From positions 1-57,376 of IMG/VR virus record IMGVR_UViG_3300023197_000044: a DNA stretch of 57,376 bases, one strand, 5' to 3'. Shown piece after piece: positions 2,194-56,594 of the stretch. The stretch is from a virus (lineage: Duplodnaviria; Caudoviricetes). How positions within the stretch are numbered: the stretch's first letter is position 1; each line of letters starts with the position of its first letter. The notes beneath the pieces are model-generated. The model was not told the origin of the DNA. It made no database searches and saw only the letters and a list, made by a program, of their open reading frames with translations. The position numbers and the translations under genes are program-made.

Positions 2194-2880
2194 TTAGAAT
2201 TTGCGAATGTGCTCGCCACGCTCACCGAGTTCGGCAAATTCCTCGACCTCTTCAAGCTCCTTGATCCTTCCGCCCACTTCTCGGGCCTTCTCCGCGATCT
2301 CGGCCTCTTCGGCGGGGCTATTAGCGCTCCCGTAACCATCCCGAAGCTGTTTGTATTGCTTACGAAGGCGAGCAAGCTCTTTCAGGGCGTCCCGGATCGC
2401 AGACTTATCCAAGCTCGTGCGAGTGAACTCCTCGGACACATCCTCCGGGCCGGTTCCGGGGGAGATGTCAACGCTTCGACGCCCACCATTTGACTGTCTG
2501 CGGAACCGAAAGTTGTCACCCTCGACACGCTCCTTGCCGAGTTCACGGAGGTAGACCATAAGGCGCTCCTTCATCTTGTCCCGGTTGCGCTGGAGGGCCT
2601 TGCGCCGGGACCGGAGGTTCTTCTTCATGTCCTTAATCGGTTGCTCACGGCCCTTCACGGCTTCGATCTCCTGCTCCAGTTCGGTCATTACCGCACCGTA
2701 GCCGTCAATCTTCTTCTCGACAGAGCCCTCAAGCGTCAGTAGCTTGTCGAGTGCCGCGTCGTGACGGGCGTCCAGTTCGTCGGTGACCTCGCCGTCGTTG
2801 TCGATGATCTCTTGCTCAACGGCGCGAAGCTCGTCGAGCACATCCTTCTGCGTTACCATAATTTCTGTGAGAGTAGACAT
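2194..2880 (-). CDS. Siphovirus Gp157-family protein
   Basis: Coiled coil KKIDGYGAVMTELEQEIEAVK...KERLMVYL..LGKERVEGDNFRF, typical of Sipho_Gp157. Confidence 0.8.
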   Translation of the reverse strand: MSTLTEIMVTQKDVLDELRAVEQEIIDNDGEVTDELDARHDAALDKLLTLEGSVEKKIDGYGAVMTELEQEIEAVKGREQPIKDMKKNLRSRRKALQRNRDKMKERLMVYLRELGKERVEGDNFRFRRQSNGGRRSVDISPGTGPEDVSEEFTRTSLDKSAIRDALKELARLRKQYKQLRDGYGSANSPAEEAEIAEKAREVGGRIKELEEVEEFAELGERGEHIRKF

Positions 2881-2934
2881 ACTGTTGGTTGTCTTCGTGT
2901 GAATAGAGTGACTGCCCGGTAGGGCAGGGTGGTG

Positions 2935-3465
2935 CTACACCATTGCCTCTTTCTCGGCTTCCGTATCGCGCTCCAGGGCATCCTCCTGGGTGAACTCCTC
3001 CGGGAAGCGCTCACGGAGCTTACGGTTGTTCGCCTGCATGATCTCCAGGAGGGAGGTGTCCAGGGCGTCGGCGAGGCGGGCGGCGTAGTAAAGGATGTCG
3101 CCAAGCTCCTCTTTCAAGTTCTCCTCATCCGGCTCCTCCCCCTCTGCGAGTACGGCACGGAAGCTCTCCATAACCTCGCCGCCCTCCGTTCCGAGCCCGA
3201 GTACGGCGTGCAGCATGTCCCAGGTCTCTTCGTCGAGTTCCCCCAGGATGTAATCCTCGCCCCCGGCACCGCGCAGCACCCTTGCATTGTCGTCTCCGTA
3301 GAAAAGGGCTCGCTTGTGCTCGTCGAGGCGACCGTCGAGAACCTGATCGGCCTTCGTTAGGTCCCTCACAAGCTCCTCACCACGCGAAAGGGCAGGATGG
3401 GGGTCAGTGGTCCAGGTGCGTCGTCCCTGTTTCTGGAAGTCCTGTGCGTCGCTTACGTTATCCAT
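2935..3465 (-). CDS. MazG-like nucleotide pyrophosphohydrolase
   Basis: GLGTEGGEV...EELGDILYY...ANNRKLRERFP motif. Confidence 0.88.
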   Translation of the reverse strand: MDNVSDAQDFQKQGRRTWTTDPHPALSRGEELVRDLTKADQVLDGRLDEHKRALFYGDDNARVLRGAGGEDYILGELDEETWDMLHAVLGLGTEGGEVMESFRAVLAEGEEPDEENLKEELGDILYYAARLADALDTSLLEIMQANNRKLRERFPEEFTQEDALERDTEAEKEAMV

Positions 3466-3471
3466 GGTTGT

Positions 3472-3912
3472 CTAATTTCTCCTTGTTTGAAGTGTAATGG
3501 CACGCTCGATTAGGTCCAGCGTGTGTTCTTTGAAGAGGTCGTCCGGCACTGTCCTGATGAGAACGAAGCCGTGCAGGGCCACCTCGTTGTATTTCTCAAC
3601 ATCCTTCATAAACCCGGAGCCCCGTGTGTGTCCGCCGCGTGTCCAGACGCCACCCTCTACCTCCACGGCTACCCTCTCGTCGGGCCATGCGTAGTCGATC
3701 CGCCACTTTCGCGTATCGTGGAACTGGTGCTCGGGCTCAGGGCAGGGAAGTCCGCGCCCCTGGAGCAGCCCGCAAAACTTCCGTCGACGGGCGCGTTTCT
3801 TCTTCTTTCGCGCTTCTCGCTTCGCAGCCTTCACCTGTTTCTCGGCGTCAGTATCTTTGCGCCTGCGGTTGCGCCGCTTCGCTTCACGTAGCTGCTCCTT
3901 GGGGGACTTCAT
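3472..3912 (-). CDS. PD-(D/E)xK endonuclease (Vsr/DUF559-like phage nuclease)
   Basis: EHQFHDTRKWRIDYAWPDERVAVEVEGGVW...DVEKYN; start taken at MKSPKE. Confidence 0.78.
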   Translation of the reverse strand: MKSPKEQLREAKRRNRRRKDTDAEKQVKAAKREARKKKKRARRRKFCGLLQGRGLPCPEPEHQFHDTRKWRIDYAWPDERVAVEVEGGVWTRGGHTRGSGFMKDVEKYNEVALHGFVLIRTVPDDLFKEHTLDLIERAITLQTRRN

Positions 3913-5244: not shown

Positions 5245-5303
5245 GGTGTCTGGTTGTCTACTGAAAAAGGTAGGGGCTGGTAGGCCCCCGTGAAATGAGT
5301 TGC

Positions 5304-6464: not shown

Positions 6465-6516
6465 GTTGTGGTTGTCTTTTGAGTGGGGGGGTGTGGCGAG
6501 GTAACGCCACCGAAAT

Positions 6517-6822
6517 CTATCGAAGCTCCCGAGTGACCTCTTCCCAGGCTTGCGCATACATCGCCTCGTTCTCCAGCCTATGCTCGTGCAGCCCCCGGTG
6601 ATGGGCGACTGTCGAGTGATCCATGTCCAGGGCGCCCGCTACGTCTTGCAGGGTGTGCCCGACGTATCGGGTCGTCCACACCATAGCGATAGCGCGGGCC
6701 TGAACGGCTCGCCAGTGGCGGGTTTTTGCCAGGGCTGCGCGGTAGGGGATGCTAAAGGCCCGAGCGGAGGTGAGAAGCGTTTCCTCAACCGCCTCCGTGG
6801 GATCTTTCATCTTACGTGTCAT
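6517..6822 (-). CDS. Stand-alone DnaA domain IV-like HTH protein
   Basis: ARAIAMVWTTRYVGHTLQDVAGALDMDHSTVAH resembles the DnaA C-terminal RQIAMYL...SL..IG..FG.RDHTTV.H signature. Confidence 0.75.
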   Translation of the reverse strand: MTRKMKDPTEAVEETLLTSARAFSIPYRAALAKTRHWRAVQARAIAMVWTTRYVGHTLQDVAGALDMDHSTVAHHRGLHEHRLENEAMYAQAWEEVTRELR

Positions 6823-7502
6823 GCTCTTAGTAGTCCTTTGCTGAAAAGATTGTGGTTGTCTTCGTGCCCTCGCCAACGGCGGAAGTCCTCGTTGTCCACG
6901 ACAAGAACAGCGTCGTGGTAACGAGCGCCGTCTACCTCACCCTCCTGGATTGCCAGTCCAAGGTCAGAGCGCTCCCCCTTCGACCCCACAACTGACCCGA
7001 TGGGGCGGAAGGCGGGGCAGGGATGTAGACCCTGCGTGTACGCCTGGGTGCCGGTGAAAATGCGCTTTTGGTAGACCGGGCGCCCCATCCGAAGCGCACG
7101 CCGCACATCGTTCACCAAGAACTCCGTGTAGACGTTACCGTCTATCGAGCCGCGCTGCTGATTGAGCAGGAGTTCCATGTTCTCTTCGCGGACGGGAACG
7201 ATATCCCACCCCGCTGCCTGCCCTCTCGCGGTACTTGCGGTCTCCTTCCCAAGCTGGGCTCGCTCGACGCCTATTCGGATCGTGGTCGTGTAGGTCCGTG
7301 CCATGTTGACCTCGTAGCTCAGGTCCTCTACTGGCACAACCGGCATCCAGCCTTCGAACGCCTCATTCCACACAACACGGTCGCCCTCAGATGACAGGGG
7401 GCCGGTGCGGATTGCATCCTCGACCGTACCCACGGTGGAGGACTTAATGTGGGCGGCATCACCCACCCCAATGAGTCGAAGATCCTTTGGAGGGCGTATC
7501 AT
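6819..7502 (-). CDS. Hypothetical phage protein
   Basis: ORF translationally coupled to both neighbours. Confidence 0.7.
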   Translation of the reverse strand: MIRPPKDLRLIGVGDAAHIKSSTVGTVEDAIRTGPLSSEGDRVVWNEAFEGWMPVVPVEDLSYEVNMARTYTTTIRIGVERAQLGKETASTARGQAAGWDIVPVREENMELLLNQQRGSIDGNVYTEFLVNDVRRALRMGRPVYQKRIFTGTQAYTQGLHPCPAFRPIGSVVGSKGERSDLGLAIQEGEVDGARYHDAVLVVDNEDFRRWRGHEDNHNLFSKGLLRA

Positions 7503-9456: not shown

Positions 9457-9508
9457 TGGCTTGGGTTGTCTTAGTGAGGGAATTATGGGCTGGGGGAGTA
9501 GCCCCAGG

Positions 9509-11359: not shown

Positions 11360-11429
11360 GGGCGCATGGTTGTCTTATTCGCCTTTCAGTGAAGCGCCGG
11401 GTAAGGCGCTGTACCCCTTACAGTTGCGG

Positions 11430-11526
11430 TGGAAAGGGCGGGACTCGAACCCGCATTAGCCGTTTCGGAGGCTGCTTTCTCCAGCCGATCTTCGAGCCTT
11501 CACAATAGGCGACCTCCGACCTCTCC
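11430..11526 (-). ncRNA. Atypical tRNA-like element (expanded D region, non-canonical anticodon arm)
   Basis: Acceptor GGAGAGG/CCTTTCC, T arm GCGGG-TTCGAGT-CCCGC, extra hairpins between them. Confidence 0.6.
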
Positions 11527-11597
11527 AGGTGCCCCTCTTTTCATCCACGTGGGGGCTTACGTGCCCAGGAATTTGCGCCCCTGGTCGGCGCGTAAAA

Positions 11598-11668
11598 TGC
11601 AGTCGGGAAGGGACTCGAACCCCTCGGCCTCCGTCTTCGCGGTGTTCTGCCTCTGAACTACCGACCGC
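11598..11668 (-). ncRNA. Degenerate tRNA with shortened anticodon arm
   Basis: Acceptor GCGGTCG/CGACTGC, D arm GTTC-AGAGGCA-GAAC, T loop TTCGAGT; anticodon arm reduced to CCG-CGAAGA-CGG. Confidence 0.65.
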
Positions 11669-11716
11669 CCACAGGGGCAGGGATTCGGCCCTGCTCTTGT
11701 GAGGCTAACTTGGCGC

Positions 11717-12349
11717 TTAGAACGGGAAGCCGTCGTCGGCCTGCTCGGCGGGGGCGCCGTCTCCCGCCGGGGCGCCGTCCCCCTCGTATTCCGGGAATCC
11801 GTTCTCCTCGGCAGGTGCCTCGGCCTGTCCTGGCGTCAAGTTCGGGACCTCCGACTTGTTTTTCGGTTCGCTGTAGCCGACGATCTCCGCGCTGATGCGG
11901 CCCTTGCCGCCGCCGTCGACGTGCTCCCGGTAGTCCTCCTCCTCTACGTCGTTCTTCCAGCCGCGCTCGGTCTCAATCGAGTATTCGTGACGAACCTCGA
12001 CACCGAAGCGCATGGGCGTCTCACGGACGAACTGCTCGGCGAACTCGTCCCACGAGCTAACGTCCTGCGACCACTCGTAGCCATCCGGCAACTCGTGGGT
12101 GCGGGTGTTCGAGCACATGGAGAACAGCCGGTCCTCGCCGATTCCGTACTCGGTGCCCATCGTGAGGTATTCCGTCATTTCCAGGCGGCAATCCGGGCCG
12201 TTGTCAATGACGAGCGTGGCGACGAGCATGTCGTTGCCGTTCTTGCTCACGTCGGCCTTCATGTTCTTGATGCTGACATCCTGGTGCCCCTCACTCGGTA
12301 CGCTGGAGGAGCCAAATTCGGATGCGTCGTTCATGTCGGGAAAATTCAT
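11717..12349 (-). CDS. Putative ssDNA-binding protein (DUF669-like)
   Basis: Beta-rich N-terminus with SKNGNDML; acidic tail ending DDGFPF; near the Sak4-like ATPase. Confidence 0.72.
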   Translation of the reverse strand: MNFPDMNDASEFGSSSVPSEGHQDVSIKNMKADVSKNGNDMLVATLVIDNGPDCRLEMTEYLTMGTEYGIGEDRLFSMCSNTRTHELPDGYEWSQDVSSWDEFAEQFVRETPMRFGVEVRHEYSIETERGWKNDVEEEDYREHVDGGGKGRISAEIVGYSEPKNKSEVPNLTPGQAEAPAEENGFPEYEGDGAPAGDGAPAEQADDGFPF

Positions 12350-12418
12350 GGTTGTGGTTGTCTTTCGGTTGATAGATTATGAACGCCTCGTGCGGGCGGA
12401 AACCCGCTTAGGATGATC

Positions 12419-12835
12419 CTAATTGGCGAGGCGGGCTTTCATGCTGGCTCTTCGGTTCTTCAAGATGGAGAACCAGTCTTCTTCGTCGATCTGGGCATCA
12501 CCGAGCCAGTATTCCCACTTCTCGTCGTCAACCTCGATCATCAAGTTGTCCGGTGAGAAGTCAAGCTCGATAGTGCGCACCAGGAGCGGTTCCCATCCCG
12601 GTGTGTGGAGCCACCTACCGAACGTGGCGCCAGGGGAGGACTTTAGGGTCGAAACCCATCCGTCCCCGCAAAGCCCGCATTGAAACGTCTTCTGCTCGCG
12701 GGTCTCGACGCCGTTGCTCTTTTCGTTCATGCCTTGCATCACCCGCAGGGCCTTTGCTCCGCAGCACTTGCATCGTGCGTCGGAGGTAGCGGAAAACGGA
12801 TTGGAGGGGGAGCTATTCATCGTCACCCCCGCCAT
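12419..12835 (-). CDS. Hypothetical zinc-finger protein
   Basis: CKCC...CGLC. Confidence 0.6.
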   Translation of the reverse strand: MAGVTMNSSPSNPFSATSDARCKCCGAKALRVMQGMNEKSNGVETREQKTFQCGLCGDGWVSTLKSSPGATFGRWLHTPGWEPLLVRTIELDFSPDNLMIEVDDEKWEYWLGDAQIDEEDWFSILKNRRASMKARLAN

Positions 12836-13751
12836 TTAGGCGATTCCCGAGTTCCTGAATCCGGGCCTTTACGCCCTCCAGTGTGTCGGGTACGTGGCGC
12901 TTCGCTTCAAGGCCCTTGTTCTCGTAGTGCTTATATGCGGCCTTGAGGCGCTTGAGCGCCTGTCGCATCGGTCGTGCGTCCTTCTCGACCGGCTGAGGCT
13001 CCGTGACCGTGCTAAACTTTGGGTCGTAGATCAACCGTCCGTGGTTGACGCCCTTCGTCACCGCCCCGACGCGCTTCTGCCCCAGGGCAGGGCGGCTAAT
13101 CCAGATGATGCTTTCGGCGAGGTACGGCCCGGTCTTCCAGAGGTCGATCACTTTCTCGCCCGTTTTCGAGTCGTCAATGTACTCGTCCTTGATTCGGGAG
13201 CACATCACGACGTTGTGCTGCTTGCGTATCTCGCCAATCCAGCCGTCGAGAATCGGGTAAAGCTGCCCATACATCATCGGCGGGATCGGGTCGTCGCCGC
13301 GCTTCATTTGGTAGTTAAAGCTCGCGGCGGCAATGCCCAACAGGTCCGAGGCTGAGTCGATAACGACCGTCCCCCGCTCTGCGTCGGCAAGGACCGACAC
13401 TGCCTGATTCATCTTCTTGTCGACGCCGAACCAGGGTGCGAACCAAATGTCTTCGGCGTCCCCATCGGCCTTCGGCTCCAGTGCAAGGTGCCGGATGTCC
13501 TTCTCCGGGAACGACTTGACGAGGGTTGCGACCTCATGACCGGCTTCGGTGCCAATCACGTGGAGTGGGCCAGGGGCGGTAGCCGCGAAGTGGGTCTTGC
13601 CGCTTCCCTCTGGCCCAATCGCAATCACCACCTCGTTCGGGTGCTCAACCGGCTCAAAGAGCGCGTTGTACCTGGAACTCTGACCCGGCGCCGCGTCAGC
13701 CTCGGGCGGTTCGGGCTGGGACATAACATCCTCTGCTGTTGATGTGCTCAT
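12813..13751 (-). CDS. AAA_24 / Sak4-like ATPase (recombination)
   Basis: Walker A GPEGSGKT, Walker B VVIDS; start refined to ATG 13751 by the leader motif. Confidence 0.8.
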   Translation of the reverse strand: MSTSTAEDVMSQPEPPEADAAPGQSSRYNALFEPVEHPNEVVIAIGPEGSGKTHFAATAPGPLHVIGTEAGHEVATLVKSFPEKDIRHLALEPKADGDAEDIWFAPWFGVDKKMNQAVSVLADAERGTVVIDSASDLLGIAAASFNYQMKRGDDPIPPMMYGQLYPILDGWIGEIRKQHNVVMCSRIKDEYIDDSKTGEKVIDLWKTGPYLAESIIWISRPALGQKRVGAVTKGVNHGRLIYDPKFSTVTEPQPVEKDARPMRQALKRLKAAYKHYENKGLEAKRHVPDTLEGVKARIQELGNRLNGGGDDE

Positions 13752-13806
13752 GGTTGTCCTCCGTGATTTGGGAGTGGGGCAGGGGTAACTGCCCACGGGC
13801 TGCGGA

Positions 13807-14079
13807 TTATTGGAGAAGGATCTGCTCAAGTTCGGCAAGCTCCTTCGTGAGCGCTTCCCTCGCAATCTTCGCGTTACTGATTGCCGCCTGGACCTTACCC
13901 GGCAAGTTGTTGGGTAAATCCCTGTCGTAGGGCGAGCTATTGGCGAACTTGTTGACCTCTGCGATCTCCTCAATTGCGTCGTCGAGGCGACCGATCAGGG
14001 CTCGGTAAAGCCCGAGTCGGTAGTTGGCTCCCTGCCGCATGAAGTCTTCGGCGCTATTAGCTTTGACCGTGGTAGCCAT
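13807..14079 (-). CDS. Hypothetical protein
   Basis: Preceded by hairpin 14118-14133 and a motif variant. Confidence 0.7.
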   Translation of the reverse strand: MATTVKANSAEDFMRQGANYRLGLYRALIGRLDDAIEEIAEVNKFANSSPYDRDLPNNLPGKVQAAISNAKIAREALTKELAELEQILLQ

Positions 14080-14146
14080 GGGATTGGTGTCTTTTGGTGT
14101 GAAGGAGTTGGGTACTCGCGCCGGGTAGGGCGCTTGCGCTTATCCG

Positions 14147-14220
14147 TGCCCCCGGCAGGAGTCGAACCTACGGCACGCGGCTTAGGAAGCCACCGCTCTG
14201 TCCGTCTGAGCTACAGGGGC
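14147..14220 (-). tRNA. tRNA-Arg(CCT), phage-encoded
   Basis: Cloverleaf with anticodon arm GTGGC-TTCCTAA-GCCGC and T loop TTCGACT. Confidence 0.93.
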
Positions 14221-14230
14221 GAATCTCCTC

Positions 14231-14539
14231 CTACTCGCTGGGTAGGTTTTCGCTTGCGTAGATACGGCGGCGCTCTTGAATGCCCAGGTTTTTCAGGCGG
14301 TAGGTGCGCTCGGTGGAGAAGCCCAGGGCTCGGGCCATGCGGAGGAGGGTGCCGATGCGCTCGTGACCGTCGGCCTTCATGGCGGCGTAACAGGCGTTCC
14401 GATGGATGCCTTTGCCACGGTCGGGGTCGGGGTTGTCGCATCGACGTGCGACAGCACAGGGGTTGAGATCGCGCCGCTCCATCTCCTCAGAGACGAGCGT
14501 GCGCAGTTGGGGCGCAGTCAGGTTCATGGGGACGTGCAT
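14231..14539 (-). CDS. Small putative HTH regulator (first gene of the replication operon)
   Basis: XRE-like pattern LRTLVSEEMERRDLNPCAVARR...IGTLLRMARALG. Confidence 0.55.
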   Translation of the reverse strand: MHVPMNLTAPQLRTLVSEEMERRDLNPCAVARRCDNPDPDRGKGIHRNACYAAMKADGHERIGTLLRMARALGFSTERTYRLKNLGIQERRRIYASENLPSE

Positions 14540-48171: not shown

Positions 48172-51100
48172 TGGACGTATTCGTTAAGACGTATCGGATT
48201 GAAGGCGGCAATATCCAGGGTGGTAAGTCCATCCAGGAGGTGCCCCTTCTAGAGGTCTCCGAGTTTGGCGAGGTGAAGAAGTACCTCGAAGAGGAGGCTA
48301 CGGAGTTCCGCATGGACTCAATCAGCCTCAAGACGGAGTTTCTGCCGAAGAGCTTCTTCGCCGACTACACGCCCCAGACGCCCTACCTCGTCGAGGTACA
48401 GGTCGGGTCGGGGTGGGATGCCTCGGACAGCCGGTGCATCTTCTACGGCCCCATCAAGAAGAAGTCCATCAAGTACAACGAGCGCACTGGCGTCACCTCG
48501 TTCGAGGTCTCGTCTTGGGAGCGCTCTGTTAAGCAGGCCGGTAGCGTCGTCGCCCGCGAGCGGATTCCCGTGAAGGTCGCCAAGCAGTATGTGAGTGACG
48601 GGAGCAACGTCGGCCCCTTGGCGCAGTGGCTCGGCTTTGGCCCCAAGGTTCGCGTAGCGGGCGAGGACCCGGACATCCCGGATATAATCGAGCGCGGGAT
48701 GATTCTCAAAACTAAAGCGAAGCTCGGGGACAACACGATCCCGTTCCATTTTCTCTGTAACACCACCCTGACGGAGCCTGAGACAGATGGTGTCACGGCG
48801 GGCGGTCAGACGATCTATCAGTTTCCGGTCCTAAGCGGAAGCAGTGGCCTTTTCCGGGGCGAAGGCTCGACGGAGGACAGGGCGTATTTCCCCTTGAAGC
48901 ATACCGGGCCGGTCAAAAGGCATAACAACTTGGGGCAGCATGTCGGTTGGAATGATAAGTGGTTGATGAGCGAGAAGAAGATCGCCCTGCCGCTTTCGTC
49001 TTTCGACTCCGATGTCACCGAGTTGGTGGGGGCAGAGGTTGAGATCACCGTCGACGAGAGCGTCTACGGTGCCGGGGTGAAGACGACGAAGACGAAGGTG
49101 ACTAACGCCTTCGTGGCGCCCCTAATTGACGGCCCGAAGGGGGCAATAGCCAACTTGGATACCAGCGGTCTTGAGCGGGGTGAGTACGGGATATTGGTTT
49201 TCGAGGACAAGGTGGGCGGTAGTGTGCAGCGAGGGACCTTCGAGGTTCCCACCAACTACAGCGGGGACCCGATTGGGCTTCCCGACATGATTGGGGCAAC
49301 CTGGACGTACAACAAGCTTCTCACCGTTGAGCCCGGTACGGACGGCACCCTGCTCTCTTCGGAAGCCTATGGTCGAGAGGGCGGGTCAATGCAGCCGTAC
49401 GGGGCAGTGCCCCTCGCCGAGGGGGTTGCGACTCGAACCCCGGCACTCGCCGACCTCCTGGATGGGAGCCCCGTCGTTAAAGGGACACCCGGTAGCCTGA
49501 GCAGGCGAATCCAGTTTGACGAGGACCTTATCAAGGCGCTCGGAGACATTCAGCGCTCCGCAGAAGCGCACATATCGTTTCAGGCCCGGTCGCGTGACCT
49601 GGAAGGGGGTGAGCGCAAGGACGTTACAGACGCAAACAATAATAAGATCGGGGAGGGCGCTCGGCGGGTGAAGATGGTCGTTGCCACAAGGGATTACCAG
49701 GCCCAACAGCCGACCCTTGACCTCCCGGACGCAATCGAGTGGAAAGGGGAGGCCCTGGGCGCGAAGCCCGACGTTGTGGTCGTAGAGGGGCCTAAGATCA
49801 TAAATGCAAGCTCCGATCGGGACAAAGCCGTGGGGTGGTTCCCGAAGGACGCCATCGACGACCCTGATAGGGCTGATGAGGGCGGCAATGAAGTCGTGAA
49901 GATTGAGGCCCCTCTTATCGAGGCTTCGGTCGAGGGCAATGGGCTCACTGTGCCGGAAAATATCTCCTCGGTGGCGGGGAGGGCAGAGCGCTACTACAAC
50001 TTCTACTCGCAGTATTTCCGCGAGAAGGAGGTCGTCGTTGATGGCGTGTTCGATCAGGTTGCCGGTGGCGCATACGAGGACCCCGTGATTGGCTCTACCG
50101 TGTCGGAGGACGAGTCGGTATTCGAGACCGGGGTAGTCACGAGCCAGTCGGTCGACTACGGGAAAGAGGAGACGACCCTAAACGTCTTAGTGGCGACGAG
50201 CTACGTTGCCCCCACCAATGCGGACCCGGTGGCGCTCCTACAGGCCCCAAGTGCGCTCCAATCCAACGACGGAGCAGTCCCCATCACTCTGGACGCCACC
50301 TCCTCCTACGACCCCAACGGAGACCCCATCTCCTTTAGGTGGCTCAAGAACGGGAGTGTGATTACCGGCGAGACCGGGCGCTACCTTGAGACCGATGCGC
50401 AGGACGGGGATCAGTACGAGGTCGAGGTGAAGGACCCGGAAGGGGCAATCGACGTGGACACAGTGACGATCAATGTCTCTACCGCAACCACGGGGTCAAG
50501 CGGGGGCGAACCGTACCTTTCCGTCCGCCTCGACGAGGGCTCTACAACAGACACCACAGAGGTCTATGATGTCGAGTCGCAGAAGAGGGGCGGCGACCTG
50601 AAAGTCGAATACAAGGTTCTCAGGGGCGACGAACTACTCAGCGAGGGGGAGATCGGGACAGGAGGGCCGGAAGCGTCCGGCTCGATTTCCGTAGACCGGA
50701 ATAATAGGTTCCTGAAGACTATCACGGTCAAGTCTTACGACCAGACGGACGGCACTGTCGCCAGGGCCGTGAGGACTGTTGCGCCTGCCTCTGAGGCGTC
50801 TACGGGGACAACACTGGGCAACTTCTTTACCGCCAACGGGGACGCAATAGAAGACGAGTGGGCTGGATTCTACGTTGATCGGGGGCGCAGGGAGGACGGC
50901 ACCGGGTCCGGCCTAATTTCGAGAGCGGTGGCATGGAACCCAACTACAGATCGCTTTGGAGTTGCCGACCTCGACGCCGCTAATGGTGGAGGGGCTGTTG
51001 AGTCGACTTTCGAGCAGTTCGCCCTGGCAAGTGCAGACGAGACAATAGATGGATCATGGAAATTTGGTGCTCAGACAGAATTTCGCGCTGAGGCGGATTT

Positions 51101-53252
51101 TCTCACGAACGGGGCGAAGTTCAACAATCACATCATTTACTCGCCCGACACCACGTACGACGTACTGAACATGCGGCGGTACGGGAAGGACTTCACCCTA
51201 CTCAACATGATGGCTCCCCCGCAGACTTCATGGGGCGGGGCAAGGGAGTGTACGCTTGCCCTCGTTAGGGGTGACGGTAACGAATACTTCATGGACCTCT
51301 ACAACATGGACTATGGGGACTCCGATCAGGGTAATTACTTGGATTATGGGAATGCCAGGATGGGGTTGAGGCTCCAGAAAAGGGGAACGGGGGTCTACAC
51401 TCCGTTCTTCTTTGAATACAGTGACGGCACGCGGGGCGAAGAGATCGAGGCGATGGTGATGTACCCCCAGCAGTCAACGAACAGCACCAACGATACCAAG
51501 ATCGAGGTAGTCAACGAATTTGAGGTTGGCGGTACCGCTGTAATTGGTGAGCATATTGGCAGCCCCTCCTACACGAGCGGGATTCTTGGGGCAGGGTGGA
51601 GGGTGGATAATACCCCAGCGGAGGGGTCGTTCTTCGAGGTCGACAACATGCGTGTGCGTAATGAATTTCGCACGCACATTTTCAAGAAGGACATCGTGAA
51701 GGCGAGCAACGGCTACTTGCTCATTACCGACTCTGCGAAGGTTGCCGAAGGGAAGGCGATGTTCCAGGACGGGCAAACCCTTGATGTGGAGTCTGGAGAG
51801 GGCAATGCCAGCTTCTCGGTCAATGACCTTCTCTGGGTAAAGACGCTCGACGACGCCGGATCAACTGTCTACGAAATCAAGCTCACTGTAACGGCTGTAG
51901 ATGCCTCCCCAGGCGATAAGGACATCTTGACGGTCAACGTGCAGTCAGCGGGTGACGTGTACGAGGGCGATACCCTCGTTCGCGTGTCGGGCGGCTACTT
52001 GCTCAATGACGCAAGCAGCCAGTATGCCCCCTTCATTGACGTGTATGACGGAGTGAGTACGTGGTCTGACTTCCGGCACCCTAACAAGCTAAAGGCTCGG
52101 TACGGCAACCTGGAGGGGGTCAGTCACCCGACCATGAACCCAAGTGGGTACGGGCTCTATAGCGAGAATACCTACCTCGAAGGGGAGTTCGTAGCCGGTA
52201 GTGGGACCACGCACATCAAGTCCAACGGGGACCTCTACCTTGCAGATGGAGACATCACCTACAATGGCATAACCCTTGAGGTTAGCGCCAAAATCACGGC
52301 CCTGAGTGGTGACATCGCAGGATGGAGCATCACCCACAACAGCCTGGATAAGAGCTTCACCAACACAACGCTCAACCTTGGCACCCTTCCGAGTGCCAGT
52401 GACTACGGGTTCCGCGCAGCCTCATCCAGCGGTCGAGAGGTGTTCATGCGTGTAGATGAGAGTGCAGATCAGGCGGAAATTGGCGCGTACAAGGACTCCG
52501 CGAACCACGTGGCTATAGGCGAGGACTTTTGGGGGATAATGAACGGGGTTGGTGTGCGGATTCGGTCTGCGGGTACGGATGTGCTACAGGCAGACGAGGA
52601 TGGGTTGAAGGTCGACGCGCTCTTCACTGACGAAATTTTCTCCAATGAGGCCACTATCAGTGAGAGATTGACAATTGGCTCAACTGGAGAGATTACCAAT
52701 GGGGCGGGAGACTACACAATAGACAGCGATGGGATCGCTTTGAACACCGGCTCCGGCATTCTTGCCAGGGCAATAACCTGGAACGAGAGTGGCACTGAGA
52801 TTGCCCGCATTGCCGCCGACAATGGGAGCTACGTTCAGAGCGTCTATGGGGATGCGAACTCCAGCTACTCAGGGCAAACACTCCAGGCCCGCTCCGCGAA
52901 GGGGTCGACGGGTTCGTATAGTTACTGCGAGATTGCGATTAGCTACCGCCCGACAGGAAGCGACAGTATCCAATTAAATACGTCGGACTCAGATGGAGTC
53001 TACACCAATGACTCGCCAAGGGTGGAGATCGGTACTGTTCTTGGCGGGAATACCGATGTGATGCTCCAGTTCTTGCCGAACGAGAAGGTAATGAAGTTCC
53101 CGAACTATCGCACTTCTCACTACCCCTGGAGCGCACTCAATCAGGGAGAGGCCGTGCTGTACGTCATGAAAAAGGGGGACGGAGACATCGACCTAATGTG
53201 GCGAGAGAAGACAGACGATGGCAGTACGTACCAGACGAATCTTGGCTCGTAA
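48171..53252 (+). CDS. Large tail tip / central fibre protein with a PKD-like domain
   Basis: 1693 aa, beta-rich; NADPVA...ITLDATSSYDPNGDPISFRW; GYGLYSENTYLEG. Confidence 0.82.
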   Translation: MDVFVKTYRIEGGNIQGGKSIQEVPLLEVSEFGEVKKYLEEEATEFRMDSISLKTEFLPKSFFADYTPQTPYLVEVQVGSGWDASDSRCIFYGPIKKKSIKYNERTGVTSFEVSSWERSVKQAGSVVARERIPVKVAKQYVSDGSNVGPLAQWLGFGPKVRVAGEDPDIPDIIERGMILKTKAKLGDNTIPFHFLCNTTLTEPETDGVTAGGQTIYQFPVLSGSSGLFRGEGSTEDRAYFPLKHTGPVKRHNNLGQHVGWNDKWLMSEKKIALPLSSFDSDVTELVGAEVEITVDESVYGAGVKTTKTKVTNAFVAPLIDGPKGAIANLDTSGLERGEYGILVFEDKVGGSVQRGTFEVPTNYSGDPIGLPDMIGATWTYNKLLTVEPGTDGTLLSSEAYGREGGSMQPYGAVPLAEGVATRTPALADLLDGSPVVKGTPGSLSRRIQFDEDLIKALGDIQRSAEAHISFQARSRDLEGGERKDVTDANNNKIGEGARRVKMVVATRDYQAQQPTLDLPDAIEWKGEALGAKPDVVVVEGPKIINASSDRDKAVGWFPKDAIDDPDRADEGGNEVVKIEAPLIEASVEGNGLTVPENISSVAGRAERYYNFYSQYFREKEVVVDGVFDQVAGGAYEDPVIGSTVSEDESVFETGVVTSQSVDYGKEETTLNVLVATSYVAPTNADPVALLQAPSALQSNDGAVPITLDATSSYDPNGDPISFRWLKNGSVITGETGRYLETDAQDGDQYEVEVKDPEGAIDVDTVTINVSTATTGSSGGEPYLSVRLDEGSTTDTTEVYDVESQKRGGDLKVEYKVLRGDELLSEGEIGTGGPEASGSISVDRNNRFLKTITVKSYDQTDGTVARAVRTVAPASEASTGTTLGNFFTANGDAIEDEWAGFYVDRGRREDGTGSGLISRAVAWNPTTDRFGVADLDAANGGGAVESTFEQFALASADETIDGSWKFGAQTEFRAEADFLTNGAKFNNHIIYSPDTTYDVLNMRRYGKDFTLLNMMAPPQTSWGGARECTLALVRGDGNEYFMDLYNMDYGDSDQGNYLDYGNARMGLRLQKRGTGVYTPFFFEYSDGTRGEEIEAMVMYPQQSTNSTNDTKIEVVNEFEVGGTAVIGEHIGSPSYTSGILGAGWRVDNTPAEGSFFEVDNMRVRNEFRTHIFKKDIVKASNGYLLITDSAKVAEGKAMFQDGQTLDVESGEGNASFSVNDLLWVKTLDDAGSTVYEIKLTVTAVDASPGDKDILTVNVQSAGDVYEGDTLVRVSGGYLLNDASSQYAPFIDVYDGVSTWSDFRHPNKLKARYGNLEGVSHPTMNPSGYGLYSENTYLEGEFVAGSGTTHIKSNGDLYLADGDITYNGITLEVSAKITALSGDIAGWSITHNSLDKSFTNTTLNLGTLPSASDYGFRAASSSGREVFMRVDESADQAEIGAYKDSANHVAIGEDFWGIMNGVGVRIRSAGTDVLQADEDGLKVDALFTDEIFSNEATISERLTIGSTGEITNGAGDYTIDSDGIALNTGSGILARAITWNESGTEIARIAADNGSYVQSVYGDANSSYSGQTLQARSAKGSTGSYSYCEIAISYRPTGSDSIQLNTSDSDGVYTNDSPRVEIGTVLGGNTDVMLQFLPNEKVMKFPNYRTSHYPWSALNQGEAVLYVMKKGDGDIDLMWREKTDDGSTYQTNLGS

Positions 53253-53355
53253 CGTGAGGCACACCCGGTTGACGGCTGGGCCTGAGCCCCTATATTGGAG
53301 TACACTCTTACTCACCGGCCCTTACCGGGGCTTATTGCAAACAAAGGAGGCAACC

Positions 53356-53832
53356 ATGACAGATCAGCCAGAAGCACACACGCAGTCACCACGAGCGCCC
53401 CAGGACGCGCCGGAAGGCGAGGCAGGGGAGCAGGGCAACCCGAGCAACCGGGAGCTTATCCAGCGCTTCAACACACTCCAGGCCGTGAAGCCGTGCTTCA
53501 CTGTGCCGAAGATCAAGTACGCAATGACGAAGAACATGACTCGCATTGAACAGGCCCTCAAGCCGTTCCATCGGGCTGACGAGGAGCTTCGGGGTGAGTT
53601 CGGTATCTCGGGTCAGGAGCCCCTTCGTACCAAGGATGGAGAGCCCCGCGAGGGCATCGACCAGGAGTTCTACGACCGCCGCCAGGGCCTCCTCGGAGAA
53701 GAGGGCGACCCCTACGACGAGTACAATGTCTCAGATCGGTTCCTCGACAAAGAGGAGGGGCGTATGCGTGACGGAAGCAGGGGGCTTCCTGAGGGCGCCA
53801 TTTCGCCTATCATGTGGCTCTTCTCCGAATAA
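53356..53832 (+). CDS. Hypothetical protein (possible tail-fibre-associated)
   Basis: Hairpin and GGAGGCAACCATG define the start. Confidence 0.68.
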   Translation: MTDQPEAHTQSPRAPQDAPEGEAGEQGNPSNRELIQRFNTLQAVKPCFTVPKIKYAMTKNMTRIEQALKPFHRADEELRGEFGISGQEPLRTKDGEPREGIDQEFYDRRQGLLGEEGDPYDEYNVSDRFLDKEEGRMRDGSRGLPEGAISPIMWLFSE

Positions 53833-53943
53833 TGAGCACAGGTGTAAGCGGAACCCCTGGCGAGGACGTGCCCGATTGGGTACCTTGGGAGTGTAGTTGA
53901 TTGAGGGGCTTACCGGCCCCCATAATCCCAAGACAACCATGAC

Positions 53944-54564
53944 ATGCACCCCCTCTTTTTTGCCCTCCTGGGCACGTCCTGCCTTTGGGTTTTCGGCTAT
54001 TGGATATCACGTAGCCCGAGCCTGGAGGTTACTCGTTTCTTGTCCCCCATCGTCTCTCTTGGGCAGCACGCCCAGGTGAAAGGCACACTTTCCTTTCTTG
54101 CAATCGAGACGGGTTTTATTGACTCCCTGCTCACTTTCATGCAGGGAGTTTTTGAGGTAAGGGCCGAGGCCGCGTTTGCCCTGGGGCTCGTACTCCTGTT
54201 CGACTTTGCCTCCGGGGTCTACGCCTCGTGGTGGCGCAAGTCCGACGAGCTTGGGCGCCCCGCAGCCTTCAATCAGTTCTTGTCGTCGAGGCGACTGCGG
54301 GACTCGATCATCAAGATCGGGGAGTACCTGTCTGTCCTAATCCTCTTCACGGTCGCCGCTAACGTGTGGGAGGTGGAGCTTGGGTGGGCGAAGCGCTGGA
54401 CCTACCTGATGATCTTTCTAACGGAGTTCTGGAGCACCCGAGAGAACTTCCAGGACGTTCCGATCCGGGGTGTCATGGACCAGATGCGGCAACTCATCAA
54501 CAAGGGCACGGCAAAGGACATCTCAGTCGACTCACAAGGCCCCGGTGCCAATGACGATGAATAA
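53944..54564 (+). CDS. Holin (Phage_holin_4_1-like)
   Basis: Several TM segments; LFDFASGV...SRRLRDSIIK...TEFWSTREN. Confidence 0.82.
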   Translation: MHPLFFALLGTSCLWVFGYWISRSPSLEVTRFLSPIVSLGQHAQVKGTLSFLAIETGFIDSLLTFMQGVFEVRAEAAFALGLVLLFDFASGVYASWWRKSDELGRPAAFNQFLSSRRLRDSIIKIGEYLSVLILFTVAANVWEVELGWAKRWTYLMIFLTEFWSTRENFQDVPIRGVMDQMRQLINKGTAKDISVDSQGPGANDDE

Positions 54565-55162
54565 CAACATGCCCACGCGATCCGACAGCGGGGTCTCCTT
54601 CTTTCTAATCCTCGTTGTCCTCGCCCTGCTTCTATCCCTGCTGGCCTGTTCATCTACGGGCACCGAGCACGTTCGCATCGACCAGACGGACCGGAGGGAT
54701 GCGGTGCAGACCGAGGCCCCGGACACGGTAACCGTTGAGCGAGTCCGCACAGACACGCTCTGGATGCCGGGAATGACGCTCACGGTACCCGAGACTGTGG
54801 AGGTAGCGCGGGAGGAGCCGACCGCCAGGGATACGACCGATGCCTTCCCCCTGAAAGAGGTCGCCGTAGACAGCGCACAGGTACGCCTATCGGGCCTCAC
54901 TGAGCGGCACATCCTCGCTGCGCCGTGCCTCGGGCAGCGCCTCATTGGACGCTCGGTGCAAGGGGAGATGGAGTTCTACGTCGAAGGCGATTGCGTGGCG
55001 AGGGACACGACCATAGAATGTACCTACGAAAAGGAGTCGTGGATAGAGCGCACGACTGATAAGCTCGCCCGCTGGTTCAGCCTCGTAGCCCTGGTTGGCT
55101 TCGGCATGTACCTCTTGTGGGGCACGCTGGAGACCGCCATACGGGCGGCGCTTCCCTGGTAG
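54557..55162 (+). CDS. Lipoprotein with a C-terminal TM helix; u-spanin-like
   Basis: Lipobox LLA-C, then a C-terminal WFSLVALVGFGMYLLW; directly after the holin. Confidence 0.68.
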   Translation: MNNNMPTRSDSGVSFFLILVVLALLLSLLACSSTGTEHVRIDQTDRRDAVQTEAPDTVTVERVRTDTLWMPGMTLTVPETVEVAREEPTARDTTDAFPLKEVAVDSAQVRLSGLTERHILAAPCLGQRLIGRSVQGEMEFYVEGDCVARDTTIECTYEKESWIERTTDKLARWFSLVALVGFGMYLLWGTLETAIRAALPW

Positions 55163-55226
55163 CGAGCACGCGACGAACTCACTCTACGGGTGCTTACCGG
55201 CGCCCTACAACAACCAATAGACAACC

Positions 55227-56594
55227 ATGGATATCAGCTATCAGGAATTGCGCAACCGAATGGCGAATCAGTACCGCAGAAAGATTCTGGAGGACGGTTG
55301 GGGCCGTCACCGGATCGCCGACGACGCCTCGGCGAAGTACGGTTTCGGGGTGTCCCGGAAGCAGGCCCGCAAGGTAATCAACCGGGTCCGGGAAGAGGCC
55401 GACGCCCCGCCCGAGGTTGGCGACGTGGTAGAGGTTCACACCCCGGAGTCCGATGTGGACTACGAGAACGGCGAGGCGAGCACCGTATCGGCCCGCCCCA
55501 TGACGATGGACGAGGCTATCGAGCACCTGGGCATCAACGAAGAGGACTGGAGGATCATCCGTCCGAAGGTGGGCACGTACGAGGGGCAGTGCAAGGTGGA
55601 TGTGGTGACCGGCTACGACGCCGAGGACGAACCGATCACCGAGCAGGAGCACCGCGTCAAGACGATGTATAAGTTCGAGTTCGCCCTGGAGCGGCGCCAC
55701 CCTGCCGAGACTGAGGCATTCGCCGACAAGCTCCTCGAACAGGTCGCCGACGAGGCCCCGATCTACCGAGCCAACATCCAGCAGCCGAAGACGGGGAACC
55801 TGATGCGGCTGCACATCCCGGATCTCCACGTGGGCAAGGAGGGGTACCAAGCTGACTGGTCTCCCGACTCGGTCCGTGAGCGCGTCTTTCGCGTCCTCGA
55901 CGAGTTCGTTGCCCTGGCAGAGCAACACGGAGTGGACCGGATCTCCTGGCCCCTGGGGCACGACATCCTCCAGGTAGACCGCACCTTCGAGCAGGGCAGG
56001 GCGGGAGGAGGGGGTACCCTCAGCACCACGTCCAGCGGCACGCCGGTCACCTCGGCAATGCCGTGGATCGAACAGTTCCTCCTTGGCTGCGACCTCGCAG
56101 AGCAGATCGCCCGTCGCCTATTGGAGGTAGCGCCCCTGGACATCAACGTCGTTCCCGGCAACCACTCCGAGCAGTCCGAGATTGCCATTGGGCGCGTGAT
56201 GATCGCGGAGTTCAGGAATAGCCCGGACGTGCGGGTCAACCTCGACTCCAGCCGAGACAAATACTACGAGTGGGGCGTCAATGGCTTCATGGACACGCAT
56301 GGAGACACCGTGAGCTTCAAGAAGCTCGCTATGGCATTCGCCACCTCCAACGGAGAGCTTTGGGGCAAGAGCAAGTGGCGAGAGGTCAACGTGGGGCACA
56401 AGCACGTCACCAAGAAGCGCCCGGTGGGTATCCGAAGCAATGAGACAGGCGGGTGCTGCGTTTACATCTCGCCCTCACTGAGCCCACAGGACGAGTGGCA
56501 CGCGAAGTACCACTACCACGGAATGCCGGGTGCCCAGGCGTTTATGTACCACAAGGAGCGCGGCCCCTTTGCCAACTACGAGCGGTTCTTTTAG
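55227..56594 (+). CDS. Calcineurin-like metallophosphoesterase with an N-terminal extension
   Basis: DLHVGK, GHDIL, PGNH, HGD, GHKH motifs. Confidence 0.85.
   Translation: MDISYQELRNRMANQYRRKILEDGWGRHRIADDASAKYGFGVSRKQARKVINRVREEADAPPEVGDVVEVHTPESDVDYENGEASTVSARPMTMDEAIEHLGINEEDWRIIRPKVGTYEGQCKVDVVTGYDAEDEPITEQEHRVKTMYKFEFALERRHPAETEAFADKLLEQVADEAPIYRANIQQPKTGNLMRLHIPDLHVGKEGYQADWSPDSVRERVFRVLDEFVALAEQHGVDRISWPLGHDILQVDRTFEQGRAGGGGTLSTTSSGTPVTSAMPWIEQFLLGCDLAEQIARRLLEVAPLDINVVPGNHSEQSEIAIGRVMIAEFRNSPDVRVNLDSSRDKYYEWGVNGFMDTHGDTVSFKKLAMAFATSNGELWGKSKWREVNVGHKHVTKKRPVGIRSNETGGCCVYISPSLSPQDEWHAKYHYHGMPGAQAFMYHKERGPFANYERFF

Follow-up and report, generated by a model that had tools for sequence, protein, structure and literature searches.

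A nine-letter word and a constant-top hairpin before the start codons of a prophage of Salinibacteraceae: a candidate Shine-Dalgarno-independent start module

What marks the start codons of a phage in which the same nine letters precede one gene after another? The IMG/VR viral record IMGVR_UViG_3300023197_000044 (Duplodnaviria; Caudoviricetes), analysed here over its whole length of 57,376 bases (the window), repeatedly carries the word AAGACAACC directly against or a few nucleotides before an ATG, often with a short hairpin of constant top, CUUACCGG, just upstream. An initial annotation, made from the letters alone, had described the word as a phage-wide translation-start motif in place of a Shine-Dalgarno (SD) sequence. 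We read the word and the hairpin together as an SD-independent translation-start module that would act at the level of the mRNA, and put the probability of this reading at about 0.55.

The word, the hairpin and their tie to start codons

The word occurs 22 times exactly when both strands are counted, whereas 100 dinucleotide shuffles gave 0.26 copies on average and never more than 2. When at most one mismatch is allowed it occurs 41 times, compared with 10.36 expected and a maximum of 17. When all 8-mers were ranked by an order-3 Markov test, the top 12 were all derived from the word or from the hairpin top, with AGACAACC seen 30 times against 1.88 expected (z 20.5) and CTTACCGG 22 times against 1.55 (z 16.4). 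The core GACAACC, present in 41 copies, is followed directly by ATG in 20 of them and by an ATG beginning no more than 12 nucleotides (nt) on in 30, and an ATG that opens at least 40 codons lies within 12 nt after the word at 20 of the 22 exact sites, 10 of the 19 one-mismatch sites and 15 of the 135 two-mismatch sites. The word abuts the ATG (gap 0) in 25 of 45 start-linked sites, and the remaining gaps are mostly 5-8 nt; in these spaced sites the letters just before the ATG are often ACC or CC again (ACC at -3 to -1 in 20/31). Orientation follows the local gene blocks: 20 exact sites are in the sense direction, 2 fall in the right end, where no genes are assigned, and none is antisense, and the one-mismatch sites divide into 18 sense and 1 antisense. 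Within the word, conservation is lowest at the first two letters (TAG, CAG, AGG and AAA variants) and highest in ACAACC, and at gap-0 sites the word places A at -3, -4, -6, -8 and -9. Upstream of the word no position exceeds 0.6 bit, and those above 0.2 bit lie mostly in a G-poor tract at -14 to -8 and -5 to -1.

A gene was taken to carry the word when a copy with at most two mismatches, ending in ACC, stands no more than 12 nt from its ATG. By this definition 30 of the 61 predicted genes carry it, and all 30 start with ATG; the gene map is a rough one, obtained by codon-usage scoring and not by a validated gene finder. About 8 further starts are degenerate or lie outside the map (24470, 39124, 53356, 25393, 15446, 19886, 20018 and 16076). 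The count of about 40 sense-oriented, start-linked sites in the initial annotation agrees with the 30 map genes plus these further starts; every start that it had listed was found again (last column of Table 1), and its remark that the word moves the starts of several open reading frames (ORFs) is borne out at 6464, 13751, 19464, 20744, 36637 and 53356. Absent from its list were the 22 hairpins, an exact copy with an ATG at 56756-56764 on the minus strand, and three orphan copies without a nearby ATG-initiated ORF at 6854-6862, 56933-56941 and 21569-21577, all on the minus strand. As for the 31 genes without the word, which had been held to be mostly translationally coupled or to belong to the lysogeny and defence set, 8 do start no more than 4 nt from the upstream gene and 6 belong to the set formed by the integrase gene and a low-GC island (1 is in both), but about a dozen are left unexplained; about 5 of the 31 have degenerate variants. 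No word precedes the integrase gene, its neighbour (1690-2181) or the genes of the low-GC island (27.7-34.1 kb). No candidate for an anti-word small RNA was found, GGTTGTC being absent from the window outside coding sequence or the antisense of word sites.

Twenty-two hairpins, all on the sense strand, share the CUUACCGG top, with the loop UUACCG (UUACUG in one). Their G/C stems of 4-7 bp covary, with 9 different four-letter stem sequences under the constant top, and 4 internal G-U pairs lengthen stems on the sense strand, whereas no A-C pair (equivalent to G-U on the other strand) does so. Among 584 six-letter-loop hairpins with at least 4 Watson-Crick pairs on both strands, the UUACCG-type loop is found 17 times per strand and the runner-up loop 3 times. 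All but one of the 22 (21/22) sit 1-32 nt upstream of the word or the start, and the unit can therefore be described as an upstream stop codon, a hairpin, a G-poor and C/A-rich spacer, the word and the ATG. These modules lie closest together between 14 and 22.5 kb, where the ORFs are small. No U tract follows the stems, the downstream letters being C/A-rich, and none of the 16 terminator-like sites found in 12000-28000 has the CUUACCGG top. In the ViennaRNA centroid structures of 10 of the 22 modules, the hairpin was kept in 10/10, with U-G as its closing pair and UACC as a tetraloop, and the word was unpaired in 7/10; folding z-scores of the short module stretches are unremarkable (-2.3 to +1.1).

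The start regions of the motif genes are G-poor and predicted to be unpaired. Averaged over -15 to -1, the unpaired probability reaches 0.73 in 31 motif genes, compared with 0.54 in 30 other phage genes and 0.49 at 546 host proxy starts (defined below), and over -15 to +3 the motif genes differ from the host (Mann-Whitney p = 6e-11) and from the other phage genes (1e-4). From -30 to -10 the G content is 0.16 in motif genes and 0.24 in both of the other groups.

Some individual sites deserve comment. At 11365 the mini-ORF overlaps the helicase start (11359) and may represent a small upstream ORF. The 163-residue product that would be read from the internal ATG at 39124 in the head-protease gene resembles a scaffold protein, with its many Glu, Ala and Gln residues; a scaffold gene nested in a protease gene and read from an internal start is familiar from C/Nu3 of phage lambda, and the word copy at this place is easier to reconcile with ribosomes starting internally than with a promoter inside the gene. 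The neighbouring genes 41802-42347 and 42406-43158 contain stretches of ~75% identity (repeats D1 and D4) and look like a tandem duplication that included the module, because each has its own hairpin and word. At starts 13751, 43686 and 53356, GGAGG stands in place of AAG (giving GGAGGACAACC or GGAGGCAACC) at an SD-like distance, which is odd in a lineage without SD use.

Table 1. Coordinates of word copies, hairpins and flanking features in the window. Gap, nucleotides between word and ATG; the last column marks starts listed in the initial annotation (variant, listed there as a close variant).
Feature	Position	Strand	Start and remarks	Listed
Exact word, gap 6	2887-2895	-	ATG 2880, Gp157-like gene 2194-2880	yes
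TAGACAACC, gap 0	3466-3474	-	ATG 3465, MazG-like gene; GGAG further upstream of word	yes
TAGACAACC, gap 7	5252-5260	-	ATG 5244, dNMP kinase-like gene	yes
Exact word, gap 5	6470-6478	-	ATG 6464, sliding-clamp-like gene; start 31 codons inside longest ORF	yes
Exact word, orphan	6854-6862	-	In 3' end of ORF 6819-7502; no ATG-ORF within 12 nt	
Exact word, gap 7	9464-9472	-	ATG 9456	yes
Exact word	11368-11376	-	ATG 11365 opens 5-codon mini-ORF (11365-11348); helicase ATG 11359, 8 nt after word	yes (11359)
Exact word, gap 6	12356-12364	-	Gap reads ACAACC; ATG 12349	yes
AGGACAACC, gap 0	13752-13760	-	Preceded by GG, reads GGAGGACAACC; ATG 13751, Sak4-like gene	yes
GAAACAACC variant, gap 0	14540-14548	-	ATG 14539	variant
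AAAACAACC, gap 0	15911-15919	-	ATG 15910	variant
Exact word, gap 0	16464-16472	-	ATG 16463	yes
CCGACAACC variant, gap 0	16785-16793	-	ATG 16784	yes
CAGACAACC, gap 0	17042-17050	-	ATG 17041	yes
Exact word, gap 0	17570-17578	-	ATG 17569	yes
CAGACAACC, gap 0	18235-18243	-	ATG 18234	yes
Exact word, gap 7	18777-18785	-	ATG 18769	yes
Exact word, gap 0	19465-19473	-	ATG 19464, ArdA anti-restriction gene; start shifted 64 codons in	yes
AAAACAACC, gap 0	20019-20027	-	ATG 20018, ORF <40 codons	variant
Exact word, gap 0	20745-20753	-	ATG 20744	yes
Exact word, gap 0	21409-21417	-	ATG 21408	yes
TAGACAACC, orphan	21569-21577	-	In 21420-22265	
Exact word, gap 8	22409-22417	-	ATG 22400, 44 codons; first leftward gene of divergent region	yes
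Exact word, gap 0	22876-22884	+	ATG 22885, DUF1937 gene; first rightward gene	yes
Exact word, gap 0	24461-24469	+	ATG 24470, 61-codon ORF	yes
Exact word, gap 0	24675-24683	+	ATG 24684, endolysin-like gene	yes
TAGACAACC, gap 3	27439-27447	-	ATG 27435	yes
Exact word, gap 6	36644-36652	-	ATG 36637, Mu-type portal gene; start shifted 41 codons in	yes
Exact word, gap 8	39107-39115	+	Inside head-protease gene 38236-39615; ATG 39124 in frame, codon 297	yes
CAAACAACC variant, gap 0	40231-40239	+	ATG 40240, major head protein gene	variant
CAGACAACC, gap 0	41793-41801	+	ATG 41802	yes
Exact word, gap 0	42397-42405	+	ATG 42406, gene related to 41802-42347 (repeats D1, D4)	yes
AGGACAACC, gap 0	43677-43685	+	Reads GGAGGACAACC; ATG 43686	yes
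GAGGCAACC variant, gap 0	53347-53355	+	Reads GGAGGCAACC; ATG 53356, in frame, 46 codons inside longest ORF 53218-53832	variant
Exact word	53930-53938	+	ATG 53939 opens 46 codons; ATG 53944, other frame, opens 206 codons	yes (53939/53944)
TAGACAACC, gap 0	55218-55226	+	ATG 55227, exonuclease-like gene	yes
Exact word, gap 0	56756-56764	-	ATG 56755, 44 codons; right-end region without assigned genes	
Exact word, orphan	56933-56941	-	Right-end region	
Hairpin GGGCU/AGCCC, loop UUACCG	13998-14013	-	Sole one of 22 without word or start just downstream	
Hairpin GCGGG/CCCGC	14556-14571	-	Upstream of start 14539	
Hairpin GGGGC/GCCCC	15478-15493	-	Upstream of variant AAGATCAACC and ATG 15446	variant (15446)
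Hairpin CCCC/GGGG	16084-16097	-	7 nt before ATG 16076 (CAGCAAC, no full word)	
Hairpin GCCC/GGGC	17068-17081	-	Upstream of 17041	
Hairpin GCGCC/GGCGC	17593-17608	-	Upstream of 17569	
Hairpin GCCC/GGGC	18259-18272	-	Upstream of 18234	
Hairpin GCCC/GGGC	18797-18810	-	Upstream of 18769	
Hairpin GCCC/GGGC	19493-19506	-	Upstream of 19464	
Hairpin GGCGC/GCGCC	19916-19931	-	Upstream of ATG 19886 (degenerate word AAAAACC)	
Hairpin GCGC/GCGC	20042-20055	-	Upstream of 20018	
Hairpin CGGGCC/GGCUCG, internal G-U	22434-22451	-	Upstream of 22400	
Hairpin GGCGC/GCGUU	24438-24453	+	Upstream of 24470	
Hairpin GGGC/GCCC	24660-24673	+	1 nt from stem to word before 24684	
Hairpin GGCCC/GGGCC, loop UUACUG	25361-25376	+	Upstream of AAGACACC and ATG 25393 (610-residue protein)	variant (25393)
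Hairpin CGGGGC/GCCCUG, internal G-U	36667-36684	-	Upstream of portal start 36637	
Hairpin GGGGC/GCCCC	40199-40214	+	Upstream of major head protein start 40240	
Hairpin GGCGC/GCGCC	41767-41782	+	Upstream of 41802	
Hairpin AGGGGCC/GGCUCCU, internal G-U	42354-42373	+	Upstream of 42406	
Hairpin GGCCC/GGGCU	53317-53332	+	Upstream of 53356	
Hairpin GGGGC/GCCCC	53905-53920	+	Upstream of 53939/53944	
Hairpin GGGUGC/GCGCCC, internal G-U	55188-55205	+	Upstream of 55227	
tRNA-Phe	52-126	-	Left repeat copy inside gene	
Tyrosine-integrase gene	376-1626	-	Adjoins left repeat copy	

Host lineage, host genes and 16S ribosomal RNA

The window is the whole record and holds an integrated prophage (77-57320) bounded by a 51-nt direct repeat (77-127 and 57270-57320) that is the attachment core within tRNA-Phe. 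Its genes match those of a temperate tailed phage and include helicase, clamp-like, Sak4-like and exonuclease-like genes for replication or recombination, together with ArdA, endolysin-like, Mu-type portal, head protease, major head protein and tape-measure genes. When one genome per prokaryote species was searched, a 50-nt tRNA core matched exactly in only 8 contigs, all titled Salinibacter, Salinivenus or 'Bacteroidetes bacterium' from hypersaline samples, and the best portal matches in the phage collection were Salinibacter ruber phages (26-28% identity), with a head-module layout in common. Because of these tRNA-core and portal matches, the host is assigned to the Salinibacteraceae.

The word is not a generic host initiation context. 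In the five Salinibacter or Salinivenus genomes that match the tRNA (2.1-3.7 Mb), GACAACCATG occurs 4, 2, 0, 2 and 3 times and a control word 5, 3, 1, 1 and 3 times, and 1.2 Mb of one of them, titled an uncultured Salinivenus metagenome-assembled genome (G004), holds AAGACAACC 5 times and CTTACCGG 14 times, compared with 22 copies of each in the 57-kb phage. In the same 1.2-Mb sample ACAACCATG has 4 copies, one of which opens a long ORF. Host starts were represented by a proxy set (n = 546), a proxy start being the first ATG in an ORF that runs for at least 100 codons, has a high G+C content at third positions and follows an in-frame stop no more than 150 nt upstream; the ATG-only set was kept, because a set with GTG and TTG starts was too noisy, and a self-training finder, which followed codon periodicity, was discarded. 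ACAACC abuts the ATG at only 1 of these 546 starts, no upstream position exceeds 0.12 bit, and the frequencies of A at -3 (0.17) and -6 (0.22) compare with a background of 0.19. CACA and CAAC show a mild enrichment near the starts, at no fixed position. Since the proxy set contains some wrong starts, weight is given only to the strong negative, which is that host genes have no word-level signal. The initial annotation had named a similar frequency of the word before host genes as the result that would speak against it, and such a frequency is not found, because the host genomes hold the word at control level and the proxy starts almost never do.

SD-like words are depleted before the host proxy starts (GAGG 41 versus 88, GGAG 33 versus 58), and GGAG, GAGG or AGGA lies at -18 to -4 in 49 of the 546, compared with 96 of 546 for a far-upstream control window. 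In agreement with this, a published survey gives neither an SD logo nor the usual Bacteroidetes logo for S. ruber and Rhodothermus marinus (PMC3155529). The earlier phrase 'in place of a Shine-Dalgarno' is misleading for a host lineage that itself shows no SD enrichment.

No pairing of the word with 16S rRNA above chance level was found. None of the five tRNA-matching genomes contained a 16S gene, and six 16S genes were instead taken from other genomes of the family. No stretch pairs with at least 8 of the 9 letters in the three Salinibacteraceae 16S genes scanned, the host's own 16S not being among them, in accordance with the initial statement that the word is not complementary to the anti-SD. 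The best 12-letter match (10/12, CATGGCTGTCGT, helix-34 region) was rejected as being at chance level, about 2.5 such matches being expected by our own estimate. The six-letter hairpin loop is complementary to CGGUAA of the universal 530 loop, the region of primer 515F; this pairing was dropped because ~0.4 matches are expected by chance in 1.5 kb. The 16S 3' tail reads CACCTCTTAAAGAG in 4 of the 6 family genes, with an anti-SD core of CCUCU and not CCUCC, CACCTCCTAAAGAG in one and CACCTCCAAAAC in one. The word thus differs from a Shine-Dalgarno element in that it is no complement of the 16S tail in the family genes scanned, does not as a rule stand 5-9 nt upstream of the ATG, and occurs in a lineage whose own genes make no use of SD.

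A proposed start module on the message and its rivals

In the proposed mechanism, phage genes would be transcribed as long messages that run through the modules. The hairpin would lock up the only G-rich letters that the spacer has, so that the leader and the start codon are left single-stranded, and it may also protect or punctuate the message. The word would set adenines at -3, -6 and -9 in register with the AUG, and a 30S subunit that does not use SD pairing would load at the word-bearing start. According to PMC6847099, initiation in both Flavobacterium johnsoniae and Escherichia coli is promoted by an A at -3 and at -6. Because the nine letters, the single G included, are tighter than low structure requires, and because host genes lack the word, we infer a sequence-specific reader, which could be a host protein that associates with the ribosome, bS1 for example, or an RNA-binding protein encoded by the phage.

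Several points weigh against this reading. The anatomy, the strand rule, the tie to start codons, the absence from host genomes and the predicted lack of structure are direct results, whereas action in translation and a reader are deduced from the letters of the genome. Host genes and the low-GC island of the phage itself do without the word, and hence the word is not needed for translation in the host; an unstructured leader acting purely by itself, for its part, leaves an exact 9-mer and its conserved G unaccounted for. No reader was found when 39 phage proteins were scanned with Pfam, the sole RNA-related hint being a borderline Sm-like WYL_2 match in 15183-15554 (26.3 bits, cut-off 26.7). 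Three or four word copies are orphans without a start, and the bimodal spacing, 0 and 5-8 nt, is not easily explained by one fixed ribosome contact. Two cultured Salinibacter phages have other repeated words before their starts, which could equally be phage promoters or copied cassettes, and the host comparison depends on a proxy set of starts.

A more far-reaching form of the reading can be offered only tentatively. The hairpin with the CUUACCGG top and AAGACAACC would together form a private address for a dedicated reader, most plausibly a phage RNA-binding protein or a recruited ribosome-bound host protein, that channels SD-blind Salinibacter ribosomes to phage messages or shuts these messages off in the lysogen, and each Salinibacter phage would have its own word. 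If true, this would amount to sequence-specific, non-SD selection of start sites in bacteria.

The start module has to be weighed against control at the level of transcription or of DNA. It is unlikely that the module is a terminator-plus-promoter cassette in which the hairpin ends one transcript and the word serves as an initiator-type promoter element under a phage factor, giving leaderless or short-leader messages. The model for such a cassette is the PeSL, in which, according to PMC2839356, a GGGG...CCCC stem-loop is combined with a promoter, an SD and an ATG in the spacers between genes of regions rich in ORFans, and the density of the modules in the small-ORF region would suit it, as would the gene-class-specific words of cultured Salinibacter phages, for example CCCCCTACAG before several annotated M8CC-19 starts at 46-50 kb. 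However, the sequence upstream of the word has no conserved element at a constant distance, sigma-70-like sites are at shuffle level (5 versus 5.4), the hairpins have neither a U tract nor counterparts among the terminator-like sites, and the distance from stem to word falls to 1 nt (24660-24683). At gap-0 sites there would be no room for a -10-type element, since transcripts directed by it would begin only past the ATG; the protease-gene copy is better read as a ribosome start; and no RNA polymerase or sigma family was found in the phage proteins scanned, which are part of the set. Stoperators are asymmetric and oriented, and the strand rule would fit a stoperator-type DNA operator, a word to which a phage repressor binds genome-wide so as to block lytic genes in the lysogen, the genes expressed in lysogeny being without it. 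The absence of the word from the integrase gene, its neighbour and the low-GC island accords with this, and many 13-bp stoperator sites with a role in transcription control are known in Cluster A mycobacteriophages (PMC3203893). Nevertheless we regard an operator as distinctly improbable, because an operator would have no reason to abut the ATG or to adjoin a hairpin that covaries with sense-strand-only G-U pairs, no repressor was identified among the phage proteins scanned, and the divergent control region (22700-22800) already has ordinary palindromes, GTACGTATATACGTAC (22707-22722) and GTACCATGATGGTAC (22780-22794), which were read by eye and look like classical operators.

The two remaining alternatives concern the origin of the module and the use of a residual SD. 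If the modules were recombination linkers or copied leaders, that is, boundaries of cassette swaps or duplications whose sameness comes from copying and gene conversion, no specific reader would be needed. Shuffling mediated by PeSLs is documented (PMC2839356); here, one hypersaline-lake metagenome contig skips 18268-18815 with ends at the hairpins 18259-18272 and 18797-18810, the similarity of one contig to the window stops just past the hairpin 17593-17608, and the phage encodes Sak4-like and exonuclease-like recombination proteins. Recent copies should, however, share whole leaders, and here constancy is limited to the 9-mer and the eight letters of the hairpin top. The stems vary, as do the spacers and their lengths, a pattern typical of selection on the constant letters. 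As a full explanation, copying is quite unlikely; a role as linker and a role in expression can coexist in the same module. A weak SD for an altered 16S tail seems highly improbable. AAGA would pair with the UCUU of CACCUCUUAAAG, found in some Salinibacteraceae, with CAACC as the spacer, and AAGA does lie 5 nt before the ATG in gap-0 sites, in a family in which the CACCTCTTAAAGAG tail prevails and in a phage with GGAGG replacing AAG at three starts. The pairing would nevertheless comprise only 4 bp, the least conserved letters of the word are its first two and the most conserved are ACAACC, no longer 16S pairing above chance was found, and host genes avoid SD-like words before their starts.

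Known systems, relatives and implications

Among known systems the module most resembles the start-associated sequences (SAS, and the accompanying ESAS) of Cluster K mycobacteriophages. Both are short asymmetric words in many copies and one orientation, a few nucleotides from mostly ATG starts, both are virtually absent from the host genome, and both often have a second, inverted-repeat feature just upstream. The SAS has the consensus GGGATAGGAGCCC with the SD core AGGAG, keeps a distance of 3-7 nt from the start and does not occur outside the non-structural arm, and its function is still given as unverified as of 2025. By contrast, the word described here has no SD core, usually abuts the ATG, belongs to a host lineage without SD use, and is also found before portal (36637), scaffold (39124), major head (40240) and tail-region genes (41802, 42406 and 43686). 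The ESAS are described as paired imperfect 17-bp inverted repeats whose departures do not support RNA pairing, whereas the hairpins here have 4-7 bp, covary and use G-U pairs of the sense strand. Because behaviour is shared, but not sequence, SD core, spacing or restriction to non-structural genes, the word is not placed in the SAS family.

Stoperators are repressor DNA sites that are not fixed to the start codon; the word resembles those of Cluster A in being present as many oriented asymmetric sites across a temperate phage genome, but it abuts the ATG and travels with an RNA-type hairpin. The targets of T4 RegA and RegB and the C/A-rich enhancer elements targeted by GcvB are cases in which one trans-acting factor reads a short sequence at many message starts; the word has no sequence likeness to them, the scanned proteins include no homolog, and no anti-word RNA beyond the antisense of the word sites themselves turned up. 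The PeSL cassettes of the T4-type phages RB49 and phi1 are likewise intergenic composites of stop codon, G/C stem-loop, expression signal and ATG, repeated through ORFan-rich regions as possible cassette boundaries; according to PMC2839356 they contain tested sigma-70 promoters, terminating stem-loops and an ordinary SD, whereas the modules here have no promoter consensus, U tract or SD. Two breakpoints, each from a single contig, lie at modules here and may reflect recombination of the PeSL type. The Kozak-like context of Bacteroidia (A at -3, -6, -12 and -13) is similar in its independence from SD, its A at -3 and -6 and the low structure around the start, but according to PMC6847099 it is a statistical preference of host genes in low-GC Flavobacterium, whereas the word is an exact 9-mer private to the phage. 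Unlike that context, Salinibacter-type host genes have almost no upstream signal, in our 546 proxy starts as in PMC3155529.

Relatives of the prophage are scarce. Portal homologs of 68-82% identity were found only on short Logan, JGI or ENA contigs, and none was found in 58 host-family genomes; relatives with such portals are represented in runs X3-X6. The metagenome sequences aligned to the window show 1,877 differences from it, of which the 40 with the best support were considered, and stretches without cover were given no weight. Searches of viral contigs through the major head protein, the helicase, the portal and a portal alignment gave no usable relative except a locus with a 25%-identical helicase, protein searches of genome contigs gave none, and blastn of the head region against the phage collection gave no match. 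Matches to a composite pattern in 69 viral-contig loci and 96 metagenome stretches were taken as chance, because each locus had a single match and at most 6 GACAACC cores and 3 hairpin tops. In the relative contig (run X6) whose similarity ends just past the hairpin 17593-17608, the unaligned letters read GGAGGAAACAACCA in the gene sense, which suggests that this one contig keeps the word core.

Other Salinibacter phages have words of their own. M31CR41-2 has no copy of the word or of CTTACCGG, and its top 8-mer reaches only z 9.5, but its annotated starts have G-poor, C/A-rich leaders with the recurrent words CAGCCAAC(C) and CTCTCAG; CAGCCAAC occurs 10 times in its 50 kb, compared with 18 times in 1.2 Mb of host DNA, and AGCCAAC stands 2-14 nt before an ATG in 8 of 12 copies. 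AGCCAACC differs from AGACAACC by one letter. In M8CC-19, CTAATCATAAC and CCCCCTACAG recur before annotated starts. No report of a start motif in Salinibacter phages was found in the literature, and the main text of PMC5776456, which describes these phages, is silent on the matter. Lineage-specific words before starts may therefore be common in Salinibacter phages, judging from these genomes, and the present prophage is by far the sharpest case among those examined. Such words cut both ways, since they fit private readers but also promoters or copied leaders.

Some other features of the window were noted. The low-GC island (27700-34120, 38-52% G+C), which has no word copy at any gene start, encodes, besides a methylase-like protein and an AAA_13 ATPase, a 432-residue protein without a family, and looks like acquired defence-type cargo. 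A phage-borne tRNA-Arg (CCU) lies at 14146-14220 on the minus strand, and metagenome depth peaks over that bin, probably because host tRNA genes also map there. The 357-nt spacer before the helicase gene (11360-11716, minus strand) contains a borderline tRNA match at 11600-11666, whose 29.0 bits lie at the cut-off, and a weak match of tmRNA type (11427-11526), neither of which was called by ARAGORN, and T-arm-like words resembling those of this spacer recur at 18826-18844 and 49423-49441. The ~850 nt between leftward genes at 21420-22265 have no convincing ORF, the sole one, 21575-21838 on the minus strand, being without a family; this stretch holds an orphan word copy and a T-arm-like stem at ~22216-22236 on the plus strand, and may encode a non-coding RNA. 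An Rfam scan of the window gave the tRNAs and two sub-threshold matches and nothing else, and a search for RNA records over 14001-24000 gave none.

How start codons are chosen in bacteria that ignore Shine-Dalgarno pairing is an open question, and Salinibacter-type genomes show almost no signal before their starts. The same nine letters with a fixed-top hairpin before about half of the genes of a phage provide a natural, high-contrast handle on start selection, and the word could be used for mutation, as bait for a reader, or as a portable expression signal in Salinibacter or Rhodothermus genetics. At a practical level, it corrects gene starts and reveals small ORFs and a nested scaffold gene that were missed by ORF callers. 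The word is also a second, SD-free example of the phenomenon seen in the start-associated sequences of mycobacteriophages, whose function has been untested since 2011, and because it is free of SD it separates start association from SD pairing.

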